62,278 nt of DNA from Candidatus Xenobia bacterium (GTDB lineage: Bacteria > Vulcanimicrobiota > Xenobia > Xenobiales > QWHO01), in contig BTUM01000047.1 in the NCBI GenBank assembly GCA_045863235.1, forward strand, positions 1 through 62,278. Reading direction: 5' to 3'. The first letter of the stretch is position 1. Every line of letters begins with the position of its first letter. The notes beneath the pieces were generated by a model. The model worked only from the letters and a program-made list of their open reading frames with translations. It made no database searches and was not told the DNA's origin. The position numbers and the translations under genes were made by a program. Of the stretch, positions 593 to 9,821 are shown piece after piece.

Positions 593-781
593 CTACTTCA
601 AGGGACGCTTCCTGCTCAGGCTGGCCATCAAGTGGCGCAGCGCCTCCGGAGACGGGGCGGGCCGGGGCAGCGGGGGCCTCGCGGTGACTGAAACGACGCG
701 ATGGCGAACGCCTTCGGGAGCGGGCTCGGCCAGCAGGTGGTCGCGCGTGAGCAGCGCCTGGTCGTCATGAAGGGTGTACAT
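593..781 (-). CDS. Small hypothetical protein (62 aa)
   Basis: GGAGGT Shine-Dalgarno upstream of the ATG on the minus strand; co-oriented with 176..580. Confidence 0.55.
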   Translation of the reverse strand: MYTLHDDQALLTRDHLLAEPAPEGVRHRVVSVTARPPLPRPAPSPEALRHLMASLSRKRPLK

Positions 782-902
782 TCGATTCTACCTCCGGAGA
801 GAGAAGGATTTTCTTCAACGGGAGGCTGTTTCTGCGGCCTGACGGCGCAATCCCTGTGGACAAGCCTGTGAATCGAGAGGGAGAGGCGGGGGAAAAGGGG
901 GC

Positions 903-932
903 TTGACGACCCGGGGGGTCGTCTAGTATGAT
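903..932 (+). promoter_or_regulatory. Putative sigma70 promoter with an inverted repeat across -35 and the spacer
   Basis: TTGACG (903-908), 18 nt, TATGAT (927-932); GACGACCC-GGG-GGGTCGTC palindrome at 905-923. Confidence 0.55.
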
Positions 933-1100
933 GCCGAAGTGCCTCGTGTCTTGAGGCGCATCAGGACCAAAACAGATGATTTTCTTCGAACAAAACATAG
1001 CGGTCACCGAACGGTCGGGAAAACGTCCGTACGGTAGCCTTGACCCCCGGGAGGGCGCGCTGAGAGCATAGTGCTCATCACAGCATATGCTTGCCAGCAC

Positions 1101-1135
1101 GCCCACCTGCAACCACCAGGTGGGCTTTTTGTTTC
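1101..1135 (+). terminator. Intrinsic terminator-like hairpin in the leader (possible attenuator)
   Basis: GCCCACCTG-caaccac-CAGGTGGGC followed by TTTTTGTTTC. Confidence 0.65.
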
Positions 1136-1143
1136 GGTTTGAC

Positions 1144-1511
<368 letters not shown>

Positions 1512-1761
1512 GAGCTTCGTCAGCGGCGAAGCTCAGGACGGCTCGACCCGACCCCCGACTTGCCCCGGGGCGGGTCGCCGTCGGACTGGCGGTCACCGGG
1601 GAAACCGGGTCTCCCCCCGGTGACCGCGCCGGTCCCCTCAAATGAGGACCCCGCTCGCAGGCTCGCGCGCTTGCGGGCGGGGCATCAACAACGTTTGCAT
1701 CAGGAGTCGGCGCATTCTTGCAGCACGTTCCTCGGAACGGCCAGGCTCCCAGGTTGTGTAG

Positions 1762-3432
<1,671 letters not shown>

Positions 3433-3715
3433 ACCGACCTCGCGGGCGCGCCGTTCCCTCCACGGCGGCGCGCCCGCACCGGGGTCCCGGCCCGGCGGCT
3501 CACCCCCGTCGGGCGGCGCACCGGGGGGCCAGACACGTCATGTGGTCGGGACTGGCAAACTCTGGCCAGTCCCTGGTCCTCCGTCCCCGGCGACAAAGCT
3601 ACTTCCAGGTCTCTGGTCTGGCTGCTTCTTGCAGCCAGACCCTTTCTGGTAGCTACGAACTGCAGGAGCGCCCCCGGAACCGTCCGAATGGTTCCTTTTC
3701 AATCCGGGAGGAAAC

Positions 3716-5047
3716 GTGCAGCGCCGTAGAGACTTCTTGAAACTTCTGGCTGGTTCGATGGGGGGACTCCTTCTCAGCTCGTGCGGTGACTCGGGCGGCA
3801 CCGACAACCTGGGGGGGATCGGGAGCGGTCCCAACGGATACCGCTTCTTCTCGCTGTTCGACAGCGGCAGCGTGCTGCCCGATGGGCGCACCCTCGAATC
3901 GCTGCCCGGCCAGGTGCTGCTCAACGGCGCCGGTCAGGTGCTCTTCTTCGGGCAGACCGCCCAGGGGATGGGCCTGTACGAGCTCATCCCCGATTACCCC
4001 GCCATCCTGCGCGAGAACCGGGGCATCCTGCTTGGCGCGCGCAAGCTCCTGGCCCGCGGCGACACGCTGAGCGATGGCTCCAGGCTCCTGGGCCTGGGCG
4101 CGGTGGCCAGCAACTCCAGGGGCAACAAGGCCATCGTGGTGCGCACCGATCAGAAAAAGCGCAATCTCCTCTTTGAGCCCTCGGGGGGCGAAGCGGGCGT
4201 GGTGGCCACCTTCCGCACCCCGATCCCCGAGTCGGGGATTCGCTTCGGGGGCACCTTCGGCGACATCGATCTCAACGACCAGGATGGTCTGCTGGTGGTC
4301 GACCACTACACCCGCCAGGGGGAAGTCCGCCCTCACCAGGGGCTGTTTTTTCTCCAGCAGGCCCGGGTCGACGCCAACACGCGACTCTTGCAGTCCTCAC
4401 GCGACCTCTTGCCGGATGCCGAAGGCACCGTGAGCAATATCGGCCTGGTCGACCTCAACTCGAACGGGAGCTACGTGGCCCAGGTGGGCGGTCCGGCTCC
4501 CCTGCCTCTGAGCCGCGGCAGCCTGCCGCCTCAGGGCTTGCTCCTGGGCTCCGTGGAGGACGGGCTGGCCAGTCGTCTGCTGGTTGCTCCCCCCAGTTTT
4601 CGGGTTTCGGCCCGGACCACATCGGACAAGTTCGCGCCGGGCTCGCTCATCTTCGGGCCCCGACTGGCAGATCAGAGCGACACCGTGGCCCATATCGTGC
4701 ACCATACCCAGACCCAGCAGGCGCTGTTCCTCAATTCCCAGCAGGTGGCCCAGGTGGGCGACCGCAGTCCGGGAGGCAGCACCATTCGAGGCTTCTCGGC
4801 TCCGGTGCTGAGCCCCGATGGTGTGCTCTACGGGATCGTCATCACCGACCAGGGCCACGAGCTGATCCGACTGTCGGCCGGCGGCCCGGTCCTGCTGCTG
4901 GCTCGAGGAGACACAGTGCAGGGGAAGGTGGTCAACTCGGTGGTCCACGGTTTCCATTCCGATCAGGCCGACCAGCTCGGTCGGCTGGTCTTCGTGGGCG
5001 AATTCATGGACGGCTCCAGCGCGGTCATGCTGGGCCTTCCCATCTAG
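3716..5047 (+). CDS. Tat-exported lipoprotein, beta-rich repeat (propeller-like)
   Basis: N-terminus RRRDFLK followed by lipobox LSSC; repeated LARGD/VAQVG..P.G motifs; GGAGG RBS. Confidence 0.75.
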   Translation: MQRRRDFLKLLAGSMGGLLLSSCGDSGGTDNLGGIGSGPNGYRFFSLFDSGSVLPDGRTLESLPGQVLLNGAGQVLFFGQTAQGMGLYELIPDYPAILRENRGILLGARKLLARGDTLSDGSRLLGLGAVASNSRGNKAIVVRTDQKKRNLLFEPSGGEAGVVATFRTPIPESGIRFGGTFGDIDLNDQDGLLVVDHYTRQGEVRPHQGLFFLQQARVDANTRLLQSSRDLLPDAEGTVSNIGLVDLNSNGSYVAQVGGPAPLPLSRGSLPPQGLLLGSVEDGLASRLLVAPPSFRVSARTTSDKFAPGSLIFGPRLADQSDTVAHIVHHTQTQQALFLNSQQVAQVGDRSPGGSTIRGFSAPVLSPDGVLYGIVITDQGHELIRLSAGGPVLLLARGDTVQGKVVNSVVHGFHSDQADQLGRLVFVGEFMDGSSAVMLGLPI

Positions 5048-5056
5048 GAGGCAAGC

Positions 5057-6148
5057 GTGGCCGTCACAAACTTTCCCACAACCCTGTTGGCTACCTCTCA
5101 GCCCCTGAACCTGTGTAGCCCCGACTCCATCCCCTACTTTCCGGCCGGGGCCATCGACATTGGAGTGAGCAGCTCGGGCAGCATCTTCTCGGTCGACCCC
5201 ACCATCCTGGTGTGGAACTTTGACGTCAGTGCGGGCTGGTTCTTCTTTGCCGGGATGTGCGGGCCGTCCATTGCGCTGCAGTTCAATCTGGCCGGGTCCT
5301 ACGACGGGAGCAGTCTGACTGCCACCCTCAACGGGGACCAGATTCAGGGGGGCTTCCTGTTTGGCCTCACGGCCGGAGTCGACCTGAATTTCGCCATCAG
5401 CGAGGCCAGCCTGGTCTGGGTCAAGGACGGCTGGCACAGCCACCTGGAGACGGTCTGGAACAGCAAGTTCAGCACCACGCTCAACATCCAGTTCGACATG
5501 ATCGGGATCATCTTGACCATCGTGCTCAAGATTCTGGAGGAGGACGGCCAGACCAACACGCTCCTTCAGAAAGTGAACGACATCAACCCCAACCTGCTGG
5601 CCTCCTACGGATTGTTCGACGAGGTCACCAATGGCTTCGTGGAGACAGGCGACTTCTCGGTAAGACCAGGATTCAGCCTGCCCATCAACTTCGTGGAGTT
5701 CATCCCCGGGCTGTCAGAGATCAACGAGGCGCTAGAAGCTCTGGCCGGCGGTCTCTTCATCGGGCCGACCATCGGGATCACCATCCCGGCCCAGGTCAAC
5801 CTGACCGACATCCAGGTGGGCGGCCAGAACTACTCCAACCTCCAGATCAGCGGCTCCACGGTGAGCGGCACGTCGACCGGCCCGGCCGGAGGAGGCTCTA
5901 CCCTGGAGGTGGGCCTGACACGCACGCCCGGCCTGGATTTCACCCTGGGCATCGGCGCCAACATCTCGATCTGCAAGATCTTCAGCCTGGGCGGCTCTTA
6001 CTCGGTGGACATCCTCGAGCTGCTGGGCATCCAGATCGACCTGGGCACCTTCCCCACCAGCCTGAGCAATACGGTGGGCTCCACCACTCTGGCCGAGGGT
6101 AAGGCTTTTCAGCTTGCCGAGGTCATCCTGGAGGTCCCTGCAGCTTAG
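5057..6148 (+). CDS. Hypothetical beta-rich protein (363 aa)
   Basis: AGGAGG RBS, GTG start, strong coding bias; rich in G/S/T/I. Confidence 0.75.
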   Translation: MAVTNFPTTLLATSQPLNLCSPDSIPYFPAGAIDIGVSSSGSIFSVDPTILVWNFDVSAGWFFFAGMCGPSIALQFNLAGSYDGSSLTATLNGDQIQGGFLFGLTAGVDLNFAISEASLVWVKDGWHSHLETVWNSKFSTTLNIQFDMIGIILTIVLKILEEDGQTNTLLQKVNDINPNLLASYGLFDEVTNGFVETGDFSVRPGFSLPINFVEFIPGLSEINEALEALAGGLFIGPTIGITIPAQVNLTDIQVGGQNYSNLQISGSTVSGTSTGPAGGGSTLEVGLTRTPGLDFTLGIGANISICKIFSLGGSYSVDILELLGIQIDLGTFPTSLSNTVGSTTLAEGKAFQLAEVILEVPAA

Positions 6149-6207
6149 CCCCTTTTGCCTGGCAAGCGTTGACCGGGTGGAAGGGGAATATCCCTCCAAC
6201 TGGATTC

Positions 6208-8334
6208 ATGCGAAACGCCTGCATCGACGTGGCCTGGTCCAAGGGCCGAGAGCGGATTCCGTTCGAGGTCGCCGACATCGGCGATCTGTCCAGCGATTTC
6301 GAGGTCAAGCGGGCGGTGCGCACCCACCTCGGCGAGCGCTGCCCTGACCTGACCGATTATGCCGTGCTGCGAGTCAGCCCCAGCCGCTACTACCTGCGGG
6401 TTCCGCTGACGCTGCGGTTGCGCAGGGCGATTCAACGGCTGGATGCCTGGTGCGCTGGCAGGGTCGGTCCCGAAAGCGCTCTGGAAGCCTGGCTGCGCCA
6501 GCGCTTGCGACCTCTCGGCCTGTTCCTCCAGCAGCGGGTGCTCGTCCCCCTGGGCCACCTGGCCGGACTCTTGCTGTCGCTGCTCTGGAGACTGGTGCTC
6601 AAGCCCCTGGGACGCCTGGTCGGGCTCTTGCTATCGCTGCTCTGGAGAATGGTGCTCAAGCCCCTGGGCCGCCTGGTCGGGGCCTTGCTGACGGCGCTCA
6701 AGCCCCTGGGAGGTCTGGTAGGCTTGCTTGGGCGAGCAGGTGCCGGCCTGGACCGGCTGTGGGCCGTCACGGTACGCCTGGTCCGCGCAGCCATGGGGGC
6801 CCTGGGCAAACCGCTTTCCACCCCCCGGATGCGCCGCCTGCGCCGCCGCCTGGGGGCTCGGCTCGAGCTGCTCGGCGCCTGGGTCTTCGGCGTGGTGGAG
6901 CGAGTCCTGACCGGCCAGACGGCCGAGGAGCGCGAGCGAGACCACCGCCTGCGCCTGCTCGAGTCGCTGCTGACGACGCCCCACCGGCGCCTGGACCGGC
7001 TGGCAGGACTGCACGAGCAGATGTCCGCCCAGGACATCCTCTTCTACGTGCACCTGGCAGCCTGGTATCAGAGGCACGGCCAGGTGCGCGATCACCAGGA
7101 GCTGTTCGCCGTGCAGCTCTTGCTCCACCCCACCTACCGGGACGTGGGGCTGGCCCTGCTGCGCGAGCTGCCGCCCTATCAGCTGGCCCGCATCCTGACC
7201 GAGATCAAGCGCCGGGGCAGGAACGTGCCTCGTTCGCTGCGCACCGAGGTGGAGCGCTACCTGCGCCGGCGCGAAGCCGACCCGGCCGCCTTCGACGGGG
7301 CCGTGCTGACAGCCCGCAAGGCCCTCAAGCAACTCTACACCAGCCTGCACATTCGGCCCGGCCCCAGGGCCCAGGCCATCTTGTTCGAGGACCGCCCGCC
7401 CGCGGACAGCCGCCTGTTTGCCCTGCGCGAGCTGGCCCGCGAGCGCGATCCCGAGCGCCAGGCGGCGCTGGTACGTCAGCACCGGCTGCCCTACAAGGTG
7501 GCCGCCGGGCTCCTGGTGCGTCACGAAGCCACCGCGCTGGCGCTGGTGGAGCAGATGAGCCCGGCTGAGCTGCTCAACCACATGGGCACCCTGAAGAAGA
7601 ACGGCTGGCTGGCCCACGAGAGCGTCGCCGAGCGGGTGCGCTCGGCCCTGGAGCAGGCCGGCTCCAACCGGCGCGTGAGCGCCCTGAAGGTGGAGAAGGC
7701 CGCCCGCGCCGCCGGGGAGGACTGGCAGGGACTGCTCGACCGCATCCTGCAGCAGCGGTTGCAGCGCAATACGGGCTGGATCACGCGCTCCACCGCCCTG
7801 CTGGTGGACGCTTCTGCCTCCATGGAGCCGGCCCTGGAGCTGGGCAAGCGCCTGGCCTCGATGGTGGCGGCCGTGGCCCGAGGGCCTCTGGCCGTCTACA
7901 CCTTTGCCCGCGAGAGCTCGCCCGTCGAGCCCGAAAGGCGCGACTACGCCGGCTGGGCGGCCGCCTTCGAGAGCCTCGAGGCTCGGGGCCAGAGCTCGAT
8001 GGGAGCAGCCCTGCTGACCCTCTACAAGAGCCCCCGGGTCTTCGACCAGGTGATCCTGGTCAGCGATCAGCGAGAGAACCAGTCGCCCCGCTTTCTGCCG
8101 TCGCTGCGCCTGCTGCGCCGACGCAACCGCTGGCTGAGCTTCTGCTTCGTCAACCTCGACCAGAGCGTGCACCTGCTCGAGGCCGACTGCCGGCGGCTGA
8201 AAATGGACGTCCAGAGCTTCAACTTCCAGGGCGACTACTATGCCCTGCCGAACCTGCTGCCGTTTCTGGCCCAGCCCTCGCGGGTGGCCACATTGATGGA
8301 GATTCTGGATACGCCCCTACCGGGACGTGGCTGA
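6208..8334 (+). CDS. Second Ro60/TROVE-like vWA paralog with N-terminal Ubl-like domain and amphipathic repeat linker
   Basis: From [18 protein letters not shown] onward it aligns with 1996..3432 to the end (FQGDYYALPNLLP vs [13 protein letters not shown]); MIDAS LLVDASASM; start uncertain (TTG 6169 or ATG 6208). Confidence 0.75.
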   Translation: MRNACIDVAWSKGRERIPFEVADIGDLSSDFEVKRAVRTHLGERCPDLTDYAVLRVSPSRYYLRVPLTLRLRRAIQRLDAWCAGRVGPESALEAWLRQRLRPLGLFLQQRVLVPLGHLAGLLLSLLWRLVLKPLGRLVGLLLSLLWRMVLKPLGRLVGALLTALKPLGGLVGLLGRAGAGLDRLWAVTVRLVRAAMGALGKPLSTPRMRRLRRRLGARLELLGAWVFGVVERVLTGQTAEERERDHRLRLLESLLTTPHRRLDRLAGLHEQMSAQDILFYVHLAAWYQRHGQVRDHQELFAVQLLLHPTYRDVGLALLRELPPYQLARILTEIKRRGRNVPRSLRTEVERYLRRREADPAAFDGAVLTARKALKQLYTSLHIRPGPRAQAILFEDRPPADSRLFALRELARERDPERQAALVRQHRLPYKVAAGLLVRHEATALALVEQMSPAELLNHMGTLKKNGWLAHESVAERVRSALEQAGSNRRVSALKVEKAARAAGEDWQGLLDRILQQRLQRNTGWITRSTALLVDASASMEPALELGKRLASMVAAVARGPLAVYTFARESSPVEPERRDYAGWAAAFESLEARGQSSMGAALLTLYKSPRVFDQVILVSDQRENQSPRFLPSLRLLRRRNRWLSFCFVNLDQSVHLLEADCRRLKMDVQSFNFQGDYYALPNLLPFLAQPSRVATLMEILDTPLPGRG
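6568..6681 (+). repeat. 57-bp tandem direct repeat (2 copies plus degenerate flanks) encoding LLLSLLWRxVLKPLGRLVG
   Basis: 6568-6624 and 6625-6681 are near-identical. Confidence 0.85.
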
Positions 8335-8355
8335 GGGGACGGAGAAGCTGGGAGG

Positions 8356-9183
8356 ATGACCGACGTCCGCAAGCTGATCGCCCGTCTGAGCGCAGCCGAG
8401 CAGAATCTGACCCGCTTTCTGGCCCCTTGCCTGCCGGGAGGACGGGTGCGAACGCGCGTGCAGGGACTGGTGTGCGAGTTCGAGCCTCCGGCTGGCTTCG
8501 AGGGCTGGGGAGTGTTCGCCCCGGAGGGACGGGCCGCCCGCCTGCTCGAGCCGGCCGACCCCATCGCCGTCAGCGAGTATCTGGCCCTCTTTCCGGCCAT
8601 GCGCGTGCGCCTGATCCACCCGGTTGCGGGACGCTCCTGGCTGGCCTACCCGGTCAACGAGAGCGATGCGCGCCAGCGCCTCGGCCAGGCGCGCCCCCTG
8701 GTGGTTCACCTGGTGGACGAGGGGGCCCGCCTGGAGGTGGCCGTAGCTCGCCTGGAGGGCGGCGCGCTCTGGTTCGATCAGCTCGACCGCAAGGCTGACC
8801 CGCTGGAGGCGGCCGTCCTGAACGAATCGTTGGAGTCCGAAGTGTTGCCCGAGCATCTGAGCGGCAAAGGCCTCACGCCCGAGATGCGGATCGCTTACGA
8901 GCTGGCCGCCTCCCAGGAGAGCTTCTTTCAGGAGACCCTGCGCCTCAGAAACGAGCACGAGCGGCTGCGCCAGGCCTTACGGGTGGGAGGCGGCAACCTG
9001 CGCAGCTACATCGACCGGGGCGATCACTGGGTGGTGGAATGGACCGATGGCCAGGGCCAGCGCCACAGCTCGGCCATCGGCAAGGCCGATCTGACCGTGC
9101 TCAGCGCCGGCATCTGCCTGGCGGGAGAGGACCAGCGCTTCGACCTGCAGTCGCTGGTGGGCGTGGTGGAGGGCAACTGGTGA
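8356..9183 (+). CDS. Hypothetical protein, candidate E2-like component (C-terminal SAGICL motif)
   Basis: GGGAGG RBS; stop overlaps the ThiF start (GTGA). The E2 role is inferred from motif and context only. Confidence 0.65.
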   Translation: MTDVRKLIARLSAAEQNLTRFLAPCLPGGRVRTRVQGLVCEFEPPAGFEGWGVFAPEGRAARLLEPADPIAVSEYLALFPAMRVRLIHPVAGRSWLAYPVNESDARQRLGQARPLVVHLVDEGARLEVAVARLEGGALWFDQLDRKADPLEAAVLNESLESEVLPEHLSGKGLTPEMRIAYELAASQESFFQETLRLRNEHERLRQALRVGGGNLRSYIDRGDHWVVEWTDGQGQRHSSAIGKADLTVLSAGICLAGEDQRFDLQSLVGVVEGNW

Positions 9184-9821
9184 GCGAGTTCTTCCTGCAC
9201 GAAAGACTGGCCCGCTCAGAAAAAACCCTGCAGCGACTTTCTCGCTGCCGCATCACCGTGTGCGGGGCCGGGGCCCTGGGGGCCAACCTGTGCGAGACCC
9301 TGGCCCGAACCGGGGCTGGCACCCTGCGAGTGATCGACAAAGACCGCATCGAGCCCCACAACCTGTCCACTCAGCCCTACTTCAAGAGCGACGTGGGCTC
9401 GTTCAAGGCCCGTATCCTGGCCCACAACCTCTATCGGGCGCTGGGCACCAAGATAGAGGCCGTACCCGAGGAGCTGACCGCGGCCAGCCTCGACAAGCTG
9501 CTCAAGGACAGCGAGCTGGTGGTGGACACCTTCGACAACTCGGTCTCCCGCCAGCTGGTCAGCGACTGGTGCCGCCAGCGTGAGGTACCCTGTCTTCACG
9601 CCGGGCTGGCGGCGGGCTTCGCCGAAGTGCTTTGGAACGAGGTCTACCGGGTTCCTTCCCCGGCCGCGGGACAGGACGACTGCAACTACCCTCTGGCTCG
9701 CAACCTGGTCATGCTGACGGTGGCGGTGACCGCGGAGGTCATCCTCACCTGGCTGGGGCGGGACCAGCAGGCAAACTACACCATCACGCTGGACGACCTG
9801 GCCGTCCGGCCGTTTCGCTGA
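9180..9821 (+). CDS. ThiF/MoeB/E1-family adenylyltransferase
   Basis: ITVCGAGALGAN, IDKDRIEPHNLSTQ, VVDTFDN motifs; candidate catalytic Cys in DDCNYP; no CxxC zinc pairs. Confidence 0.9.
   Translation: MSEFFLHERLARSEKTLQRLSRCRITVCGAGALGANLCETLARTGAGTLRVIDKDRIEPHNLSTQPYFKSDVGSFKARILAHNLYRALGTKIEAVPEELTAASLDKLLKDSELVVDTFDNSVSRQLVSDWCRQREVPCLHAGLAAGFAEVLWNEVYRVPSPAAGQDDCNYPLARNLVMLTVAVTAEVILTWLGRDQQANYTITLDDLAVRPFR

Follow-up and report, generated by a model that had tools for sequence, protein, structure and literature searches.

The locus

We analysed positions 1-62,278 of the forward strand of contig BTUM01000047.1, from the Candidatus Xenobia bacterium assembly GCA_045863235.1; the whole of this 62,278-nucleotide stretch is called the window below. 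It carries a gene for a small free ubiquitin-like protein (Ubl) and two genes for Ro60-like proteins, predicted to bind RNA, with TROVE and vWA domains. Our subject is the second of these TROVE genes, paralog 2, the product of which begins with a ubiquitin-like domain joined to the TROVE part by a long linker (Table 1).

Table 1. Features of the fused gene and of the module around it (aa, amino acids; nt, nucleotides; AF2, AlphaFold2; dN/dS, ratio of nonsynonymous to synonymous substitution rates)
Feature	Positions	Strand	Basis
Fused gene, 708 aa: Ubl-family domain, amphipathic linker and Ro60-like TROVE-vWA (paralog 2)	6208..8334	+	Conserved ATG, intact orthologues
Integral tail-less ubiquitin-like (beta-grasp) domain, aa 5-66	6220..6405	+	HHalign, BLASTP to P0155, AF2 model, structural matches, dN/dS
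Amphipathic helical linker rich in Leu and Arg, of varying length and sequence, likely membrane-binding	6406..6927	+	Hydrophobic moment, charge, indels
57-nt (19-aa) tandem repeat, 2.5 copies, within the linker	6547..6689	+	
Ro60-like TROVE-vWA domain, paralog 2, fast-evolving	6928..8331	+	44% identity to paralog 1
Free 66-aa Ubl, C-terminus EAVYG	1311..1511	+	119/120 close homologues end in EAVYG; AF2
Ro60-like TROVE-vWA paralog 1, 478 aa	1996..3432	+	Family profile matches Ro60 (9nen), E=8.9e-7, and TROVE protein (9l5y), E=3.2e-4
Candidate tRNA-like (Y-type) RNA 1, ends approximate	1150..1235	+	Motifs common to RNA 2 and relatives
Candidate tRNA-like (Y-type) RNA 2, ends approximate	1790..1880	+	Same motifs; conserved in G001, G002, G004
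Protein of 275 aa without known family; C254 of its SxGICL stretch invariant; candidate E2-like carrier	8356..9183	+	Cys invariant in 26/26 aligned
Compact ThiF-family E1-like enzyme, invariant Cys (CxYPL) after the adenylation core	9180..9821	+	Pfam ThiF, E=9e-31; C167 in 15/15 aligned

The open reading frame (ORF) of the fused gene was listed as 6169-8334, and its most likely start is the ATG at 6208, which is conserved in all five genomes of the genus. The sequence GGAGG stands just 5' of this ATG in genome G004, and in genome G003 a stop codon nine codons before it closes the frame. The start lies upstream of the ubiquitin-like segment. The fused gene is present in all four other genomes of the genus, and the orthologues are intact, with lengths of 670-717 aa. 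Between orthologues the Ubl-like domain is 73-95% identical and has dN/dS values of 0.07-0.47, indicating purifying selection; the TROVE part is comparable in this respect (67-95% identity, dN/dS 0.10-0.38). Against the G004 orthologue the Ubl-like domain is 73-76% identical and the TROVE part 67%. An RNA-library contig (run X3) covers 6008-6283, across the start, such contigs being no proof of transcription. The RNA runs consist of contigs only, so that expression cannot be ranked from them and the poor cover of the fused gene in runs X2-X4 is uninformative. A promoter scan stayed at chance level (1 found, 0.7 expected).

Homology of the N-terminal domain to the small-Ubl family

The original prediction, made from the letters of the window alone, described the N-terminus of paralog 2 as a fused copy of the small Ubl, citing a gapless alignment with 11 identities over 60 positions. 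The alignment was recovered exactly as listed, with residues 6-65 of the fused protein set against residues 2-61 of the free 66-aa protein. Taken alone, the pairwise comparison is weak (BLASTP of the fused segment against the neighbouring Ubl, E=2.3). Among 400 long ORFs from all six frames of the genome, 241 have a 60-residue window with at least 11 identities, and 45 reach the same BLOSUM score. Shuffling in the fixed register gave p=0.0016 for identity and p=0.00015 for score. The prediction had also suggested building a profile from homologues of the free Ubl. A narrow profile of this kind failed to detect the fused segment; it consisted of 120 close homologues with 64-98% identity to the query. 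A first pair of profiles (34 rows against 5 rows) reached only 28% in HHalign. Diverse profiles did detect the segment.

The diverse profiles came from a search of 1.84 billion cluster representatives, which yielded 365 members of the small-Ubl family at E<=0.001, the best 150 of them listed. From these 150, 146 domain-trimmed sequences were combined with 21 locus sequences into a 167-row profile that included no fused sequence. When all six-frame segments of the genome (108,809) were scored with the hidden Markov model (HMM) of this profile, the fused ORF came third, right after both free Ubls, with a single-sequence P=4e-6. Its first 70 residues scored 19.6 bits, against a maximum of 12.5 for shuffled sequences (20,000 shuffles, 18,604 scored). 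Comparison of profiles gave the same answer: an 81-row family alignment matched the five fused N-termini in HHalign at 93.9% (E=1.6e-7, 45 columns). When the five fused proteins were cut into 32 windows of 70 columns, only the two N-terminal windows exceeded 93%, the other 30 reaching at most 1.3%. A reversed profile gave 0.9%, and the top score among 100 column shuffles was 18.0, compared with 36.5 for the real alignment.

Direct similarity is also found to individual free members of the family. The fused domain shares 20 of 48 residues (42%) with member P0155 (BLASTP E=1e-8), and the G004 orthologue shares 21 of 48 with P0156 (E=2e-10). These two were chosen as the best of the 167 members; the best-of-167 score is 82, whereas 300 shuffles gave a mean of 36 and none exceeded 59. 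Neither the Ubl nor the fused domain nor the linker matches a family in Pfam, NCBIfam or PHROGs, and PADLOC has no match to the Ubl or the fused domain.

The membership of the N-terminus in the small-Ubl family, as originally proposed, is thus borne out by the diverse-profile, HHalign and BLASTP evidence. As judged from these sequence comparisons, the fusion is real and the deep profiles settle its homology. That the fused domain is homologous to the small Ubls and has a beta-grasp fold is, in our opinion, very nearly certain.

Predicted fold

The AF2 model of the free Ubl has a predicted local distance difference test score (pLDDT) of 91.6, with strands at residues 2-6, 9-13, 47-51 and 57-61 and a helix at 26-36. 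Its best structural match is the human MOCS2A/MoaD-type sulfur carrier (Z 5.8, root-mean-square deviation (rmsd) 2.9, 63 residues aligned). Modelling of the five fused N-termini alone gave strands at 3-10 and 13-20, a helix at 30-44 and strands at 52-57 and 60-64, with a best pLDDT of 76. The predicted topology, strand-strand-helix-strand-strand, has its elements in register with those of the free Ubl at an offset of about 4. For the fused-domain model the best match, a rank it shares with other beta-grasp chains, is the ubiquitin variant 8j0a (Z 5.6, 61 residues aligned, rmsd 2.6), and the model's matches comprise ubiquitin variants, MoaD, FERM F0 and 2Fe-2S ferredoxin-type domains. Beta-grasp domains dominate the leading structural matches of both models. 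In the whole-protein model of the ESM Atlas, residues 1-70 match Ub-RnfH with a template modelling (TM) score of 0.64 and unnamed proteins of 77-84 aa with TM scores of 0.70-0.73. By its predicted model, at modest Z, the fused domain belongs to the beta-grasp fold, so that structural similarity stands beside the profile similarity described above.

Residues kept and lost

At 17 positions a residue is conserved in 70% or more of the family; the fused domain retains 4 of these (D26, L37, R51 and R60) and has lost H3, R5, G8, S10, L18, A34, V48, D50, G55, P61, A63, V64 and G66. Among the family invariants H3, R5, G8, S10, R60, P61, A63 and G66, R60 alone remains. The changes are unevenly distributed. 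Of the core strand positions 6 of 9, and of the loop-helix positions 14 of 19, have in the fused domain a residue that is common in the family; the figures are 1 of 8 for the outward sheet and 0 of 6 for the tail. The sheet faces were assigned by strand alternation in the model and not from coordinates. The new outward-sheet residues are themselves invariant in the five orthologues at 7 of the 8 positions.

The AVYG tail is missing in all five fused proteins. Each has instead the tail R-V-P-L-x-L-R, without any Gly, which continues directly into the linker. With the conjugation tail gone and no Gly at the junction, it is highly probable that the fused domain is non-conjugatable, in agreement with the original prediction. 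Release by a JAB protease, as in BubAB, is unlikely because there is no Gly at the junction; also, Prok-JAB matches in this genome lie on contigs C37 and C17, with none on C47, the contig studied here.

In the ThiS-ThiF and MoaD-MoeB pairs, the outward sheet face and the tail form the E1-binding surface. By analogy, we infer that the corresponding face and tail of the fused domain represent a lost E1-binding surface, in which case the domain would neither be activated by the E1 nor occupy it. Because the glycine tail is absent, this integral tail-less ubiquitin-like domain is likely a built-in docking module rather than a tag.

The linker

The linker that joins the Ubl-like domain to the TROVE part is 140-175 residues long in the orthologues (aa 67-240 here). 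It is 60-68% apolar or Gly and strongly basic (17-34 Arg and Lys against 5-7 Asp and Glu), and its helical hydrophobic moment is 0.36-0.45, compared with 0.26-0.28 in the rest of the protein. Between orthologues it is 34-80% identical, with in-frame indels only and dN/dS values of 0.29-0.87. This composition would fit amphipathic helices lying in the plane of a negatively charged membrane, or a hairpin on it, and such a greasy, basic linker likely holds the protein at the membrane.

Origin of the fused domain and divergence of paralog 2

To call the N-terminus a copy of the small Ubl is correct as regards the family but questionable as regards the gene next to it, since the neighbouring Ubl ranks only 119th of 167 in similarity to the fused domain, and free Ubls of a different subgroup come much nearer to it. 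The closest family members share with the fused domain the stretch D-[IV]-G-x-x-S-S-D-x-E-[VI]-K, which the neighbour does not have. In quick trees the fused group sits on a very long branch near the P0155 subgroup; grouping with the neighbouring Ubl was not rejected by the approximately unbiased (AU) test (p-AU 0.247). Taken together, these comparisons suggest that the fused domain probably did not arise by copying of the neighbouring Ubl.

The host of the fusion was correctly recognised as a Ro60/TROVE-vWA-like protein, as the family profile match to Ro60 (Table 1) indicates. Paralog 2 differs at 18 of 106 family-conserved columns and has a stem of length 1.38, away from paralog 1; this is from a quick tree, which places paralog 2 as sister to G013 copy c (support 93), perhaps through long-branch attraction. 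In the metal site of paralog 2, DxSxS and the distal Asp are retained and Ser stands in place of Thr.

Distribution of the fusion

The fused N-terminus is very narrowly distributed. Of 982 candidates from a 5.8-billion collection, 5 proteins have it, and in the phylum it was found in 5 of 401 genomes, all of one genus; other matches had E>=1.4e-4 and were of partial length. The closest named homologues are labelled Eremiobacterota/Vulcanimicrobiota and bacterium CPR1. A metagenome scan returned four loci: two intact orthologues, one short contig diverging inside the linker, and one false match (L150). The fused N-terminus is present in three of the four, all of types already seen. Among 111 TROVE frames in the fetched loci, some of them duplicated, a Ubl-like extension occurs in the orthologues of the genus only. 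The 81-sequence alignment, used on 8000 scored candidates for longer Ubl fusions, gave one match, a free Ubl with an over-long start, which argues only weakly for absence. In viral scans one true module was recovered (L115), lacking the fusion; L116 and L151 were not confirmed. A 729-codon frame on contig C6 of genome G013 was considered and is not a fusion.

A few single records deserve mention in their own right. Protein P0209 (291 aa, a single record) has a family Ubl ending in Gly that runs directly into a vWA domain and is either a possible second Ubl-vWA fusion or a gene-calling error. In P0252 the Gly of a family Ubl precedes a short tail that is hydrophobic and membrane-like; this may be another membrane-linked form or a read-through artefact. 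Two TROVE paralogs, in tandem or divergent, lie near one Ubl without fusion in L120 (G025:C259) and L119 (G013:C1).

The parent module

The fused gene belongs to a locus with a free Ubl, a first TROVE-vWA paralog, candidate tRNA-like RNAs, a cysteine protein and an E1-like enzyme. In the TROVE family, the match to the Ro60 profile spans profile positions 168-413, leaving the N-terminal third unmatched. DxSxS and the distal Asp of the metal site are invariant in the family. No member matches Pfam TROVE, and vWA_Ro60 is matched by 5 of 41 members, with a best E=4.6e-4. By family profile against the PDB, the proteins have the combination of TROVE with a vWA domain and its MIDAS (metal-ion-dependent adhesion site) that characterises Ro60/Rsr. 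A complex prediction for the free Ubl with paralog 1 scored 0.00 against a mark of 0.32, which is evidence neither for nor against binding.

The two tRNA-like stretches flank the Ubl gene and in this genome are separated from paralog 2 by over 4 kb. RNA 1 has a GCxTACATAC handle and a T-arm-like GTTCGAATC in common with RNA 2 and with relatives. RNA 1 received no call from ARAGORN or Rfam and its folding z-score is not significant; Rfam, including YrlA, gave no match over 700-9000. The 275-aa protein has no match in Pfam, NCBIfam, PHROG, PADLOC or PDB sequences; its SxGICL stretch resembles what we take to be an E2 motif.

Among 82 loci bearing the Ubl (80 genome contigs and 2 viral), the TROVE gene is present in 75, the 275-aa gene in 47 and the E1 in 39, these counts being limited by the flanks obtained and by contig ends. 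The module is widespread in cyanobacteria and other bacteria and is present in at least one viral contig. Most cyanobacterial loci contain tRNA or tRNA-like genes called by ARAGORN. Of the 44 loci scanned, 5 (L038, L039, L049, L057 and L102) have the un-fused module directly downstream of an array of 26-32 tRNA genes. Genes near the module include Tpt1/KptA, NADAR, endonuclease V and a ribosomal L7/L12 copy, which suggests a context of RNA damage or translational stress.

Several further features of these loci were observed. In the window, two unrelated genes lie between the TROVE paralogs, at 3716-5047 (DUF7453, with a twin-arginine-like, lipoprotein-like N-terminus) and 5057-6148 (a 363-aa orphan). 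A similar gap with the orphan is seen in G002 and G003, and the paralogs are only 200-300 nt apart in G001 and G004. Very stable stem-loops, possibly processing or repeat elements, follow right after the Ubl stop (1512-1640, z=-5.8), and RNA-library contigs cover the Ubl region (997-1508 in run X2, 968-1492 in X3). The same genome has a second, divergent copy of the module on G000:C28 (L121:6157-9145), with a Ubl ending in PPAVFG, a TROVE-vWA protein, a 244-aa HAGICL cysteine protein and an E1; this copy is tightly packed, and the RNA handle motif was not found there. Of 80 clustered loci, 42 encode a 240-aa protein that belongs to no known family, with the copy at L056:8681-9400 lying between the Ubl and TROVE genes. 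The viral contig L115 (122 kb) encodes Ubl, TROVE, cysteine protein and E1, and the 595-kb phage LR756511.1 a family Ubl.

Possible functions of the fusion

We propose that the Ubl-like N-terminal domain would act as a built-in, non-conjugatable docking module on the Ro60-like paralog 2, while the amphipathic linker would hold this paralog at the membrane. The retained loop-helix surface may bind whichever component reads the free Ubl there, be it paralog 1, the cysteine protein or a ribonucleoprotein (RNP) partner. Docking would in this way bring the Ro60/tRNA-like-RNA/Ubl machinery to a membrane-bound second ring. We give docking combined with a membrane tether a probability of about one half.

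Several observations weigh against this proposal or the steps beneath it. At the level of homology, the unbiased genome-wide E of the fused ORF with the 167-row HMM is only 0.16, and the reciprocal profile of the five fused sequences retrieves no free Ubls, its matches being confined to the five genomes with a chance tail up to 23.5 bits. The structural Z values of the fused domain are modest, at most 5.6 and under the tool's mark of 8, and the pLDDT of its five AF2 models spans 76-50. Kyte-Doolittle peaks above 1.6 occur in only three of the five linkers, and for this reason membrane binding is something we infer. None of the listed RNA-library contigs bridges the Ubl-like part to the TROVE part. 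Finally, conservation of the helix surface may serve the fold and not the docking of a partner.

In a bolder form of the proposal, the fused domain would be a pseudo-ubiquitin on a membrane-tethered Ro60-like ring, having dropped the E1 face and kept the reader face, and would serve as a receptor or decoy wiring the Ubl pathway to tRNA-mimic RNA surveillance at the membrane. We regard this as speculative. If true, it would map the Ubl surface that is read by the RNP side of the pathway.

The pattern of loss and conservation can be explained in other ways. The fused domain may have turned into an RNA-binding beta-grasp domain, similar to TGS, that contacts the tRNA-like RNAs or the substrate RNA of the Ro60-like ring. 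The new outward-sheet residues include R14, R16, Y62 and R64, and the invariance of 7 of the 8 outward positions in the five orthologues points to a new ligand. Moreover, the locus has candidate tRNA-like RNAs, RNA binders with a beta-grasp fold exist (TGS, PMC1779556), and the SF3A1 ubiquitin-like domain on U1 stem-loop 4 (8id2) is among the structural matches. However, acidic residues in the fused domain are about as numerous as basic ones, five close relatives give little power for meaningful invariance, and a long linker stands between the domain and the ring. On balance RNA binding seems unlikely to us.

The original prediction regarded the fusion as resembling a permanently modified or self-liganded form. 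On such a view the free Ubl would bind or be conjugated to the TROVE-vWA protein, and the fused copy would dock on its own ring in cis. This is doubtful, because nearly all family-invariant residues of the outward sheet and tail (H3, R5, G8, S10, D50, G55, P61, A63, V64 and G66) are replaced and the TROVE domain lies 140-175 residues away, making the fused domain an unfaithful mimic of a conjugated Ubl. The Ubl gene does stand beside a TROVE gene in 75 of the 82 loci, the vWA metal site, which could hold a ligand, is mostly intact, and the 18 changed columns of paralog 2 could reflect co-adaptation; but gene adjacency alone can yield such a fusion. The direct joining of Ubl and vWA in P0209 would agree with cis docking, although it is a single unverified record. 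As a Rosetta-stone argument for a link between the Ubl and the TROVE protein, the fusion adds little beyond operon adjacency, because it is found in one genus only.

It is rather improbable that the fusion is a structural by-product, in which duplication or import of a Ubl-spacer-TROVE block was followed by read-through, with the beta-grasp domain as a stable, well-translated cap for the membrane linker. Such an origin would agree with the narrow distribution, with the retention of core residues and loss of functional invariants, and with a linker (525 nt) close in length to the Ubl-TROVE spacer (484 nt). Spacer and linker DNA, however, have no similarity (best E=0.37), and the surface of the domain is as conserved as the TROVE domain (73-76% against 67% in the comparison with G004), which is more than a cap would need. 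Least credible of all is that the segment is no Ubl homologue and resembles one by chance or by convergence on a small alpha/beta fold: the E=2.3 against the neighbour, the negative narrow profile and the 4 of 17 conserved positions kept are outweighed by the diverse-profile, shuffle, HHalign and P0155/P0156 results with their controls, and by an independent beta-grasp prediction with elements in register.

The fused domain is a natural separation-of-function variant, with fold and helix face kept and the tail and putative E1 face lost. The binding partners of the free and fused domains, once compared, would reveal if some part of the RNP reads the Ubl non-covalently, and would offer a direct way into the mechanism of the module. 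The reach of the finding is limited because the fusion is found in one genus, known here from metagenome assemblies only, and because integral Ubl domains are already known.

Comparison with known systems

Integral Ubl fusions of prokaryotes include a ThiS-like domain on ThiF beside a stand-alone ThiS, a Ubl-Mut7-C RNase, a YukD-like domain on a membrane protein, and TGS (PMC1779556). A fused Ubl with a role differing from that of the free one therefore has a precedent in the ThiS-like-ThiF protein beside stand-alone ThiS (PMC1779556). The protein described here resembles these fusions in having an N-terminal beta-grasp domain without a free C-terminal Gly, sometimes beside the free Ubl of the same system, and differs from them in its host, a Ro60-like TROVE-vWA paralog with an amphipathic linker. 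The words "TROVE" and "vWA" do not occur in the main text of PMC1779556.

Bil and Bub operons (PMC11601596, PMC11601603) likewise combine a Ubl with C-terminal Gly, a ThiF-type E1 and a candidate second carrier protein, although the 275-aa protein of the present locus is only a candidate E2. Bil and Bub Ubls have varied architectures (PMC11601603, PMC11601596), and Bub Ubls, like the family studied here, also occur in fusion proteins such as BubAB. The BubAB Ubl is released by a JAB cut after Gly (PMC11601596); in contrast, our fusion has no Gly at the junction and its contig no JAB match. Type II Bub is typically without JAB (PMC11601596, PMC11601603). TROVE has no occurrence in either paper.

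The un-fused module behind arrays of 26-32 tRNA genes, among RNA-repair-type genes, recalls the long tRNA arrays of cyanobacteria, such as those induced by translational stress in Anabaena, and the TrcR translational-stress regulon (PMC8421152, PMC10272220), whereas the window has no tRNA array. The main texts of these two papers do not mention ubiquitin, ThiF, TROVE or vWA. Nor is a Ro60-like/Ubl/E1 module described in the available parts of PMC7159879, PMC7824862, PMC9503650, PMC8421152 and PMC10272220. An Asgard-virus preprint reports both Ro60 and ThiF from one virus group and draws no link between the two (10.1101/2021.07.29.454249). Among the papers searched, we found no report of a Ubl fused to a Ro60/TROVE protein and no description of a module of Ro60-like protein, tRNA-like RNA, Ubl and E1.

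The closest comparison for the host protein is bacterial Ro60 (Rsr) with its YrlA/YrlB RNAs (PMC4201824, PMC7790460, PMC12135203). In both, a helical region is followed by a vWA domain with a metal site, and tRNA-like RNAs, here candidates, are encoded close by. Unlike bacterial Ro60, the present family is divergent and is linked to a Ubl and an E1 rather than to RtcB; "ubiquitin" does not occur in the available text of PMC7790460 and PMC12135203, nor "ubiquitin-like" in that of PMC4201824. Integral Ubl domains are a known theme in themselves, and the Ubl-Ro60-like fusion adds to it a new architecture for a Ro60-like protein, possibly a membrane-bound one.

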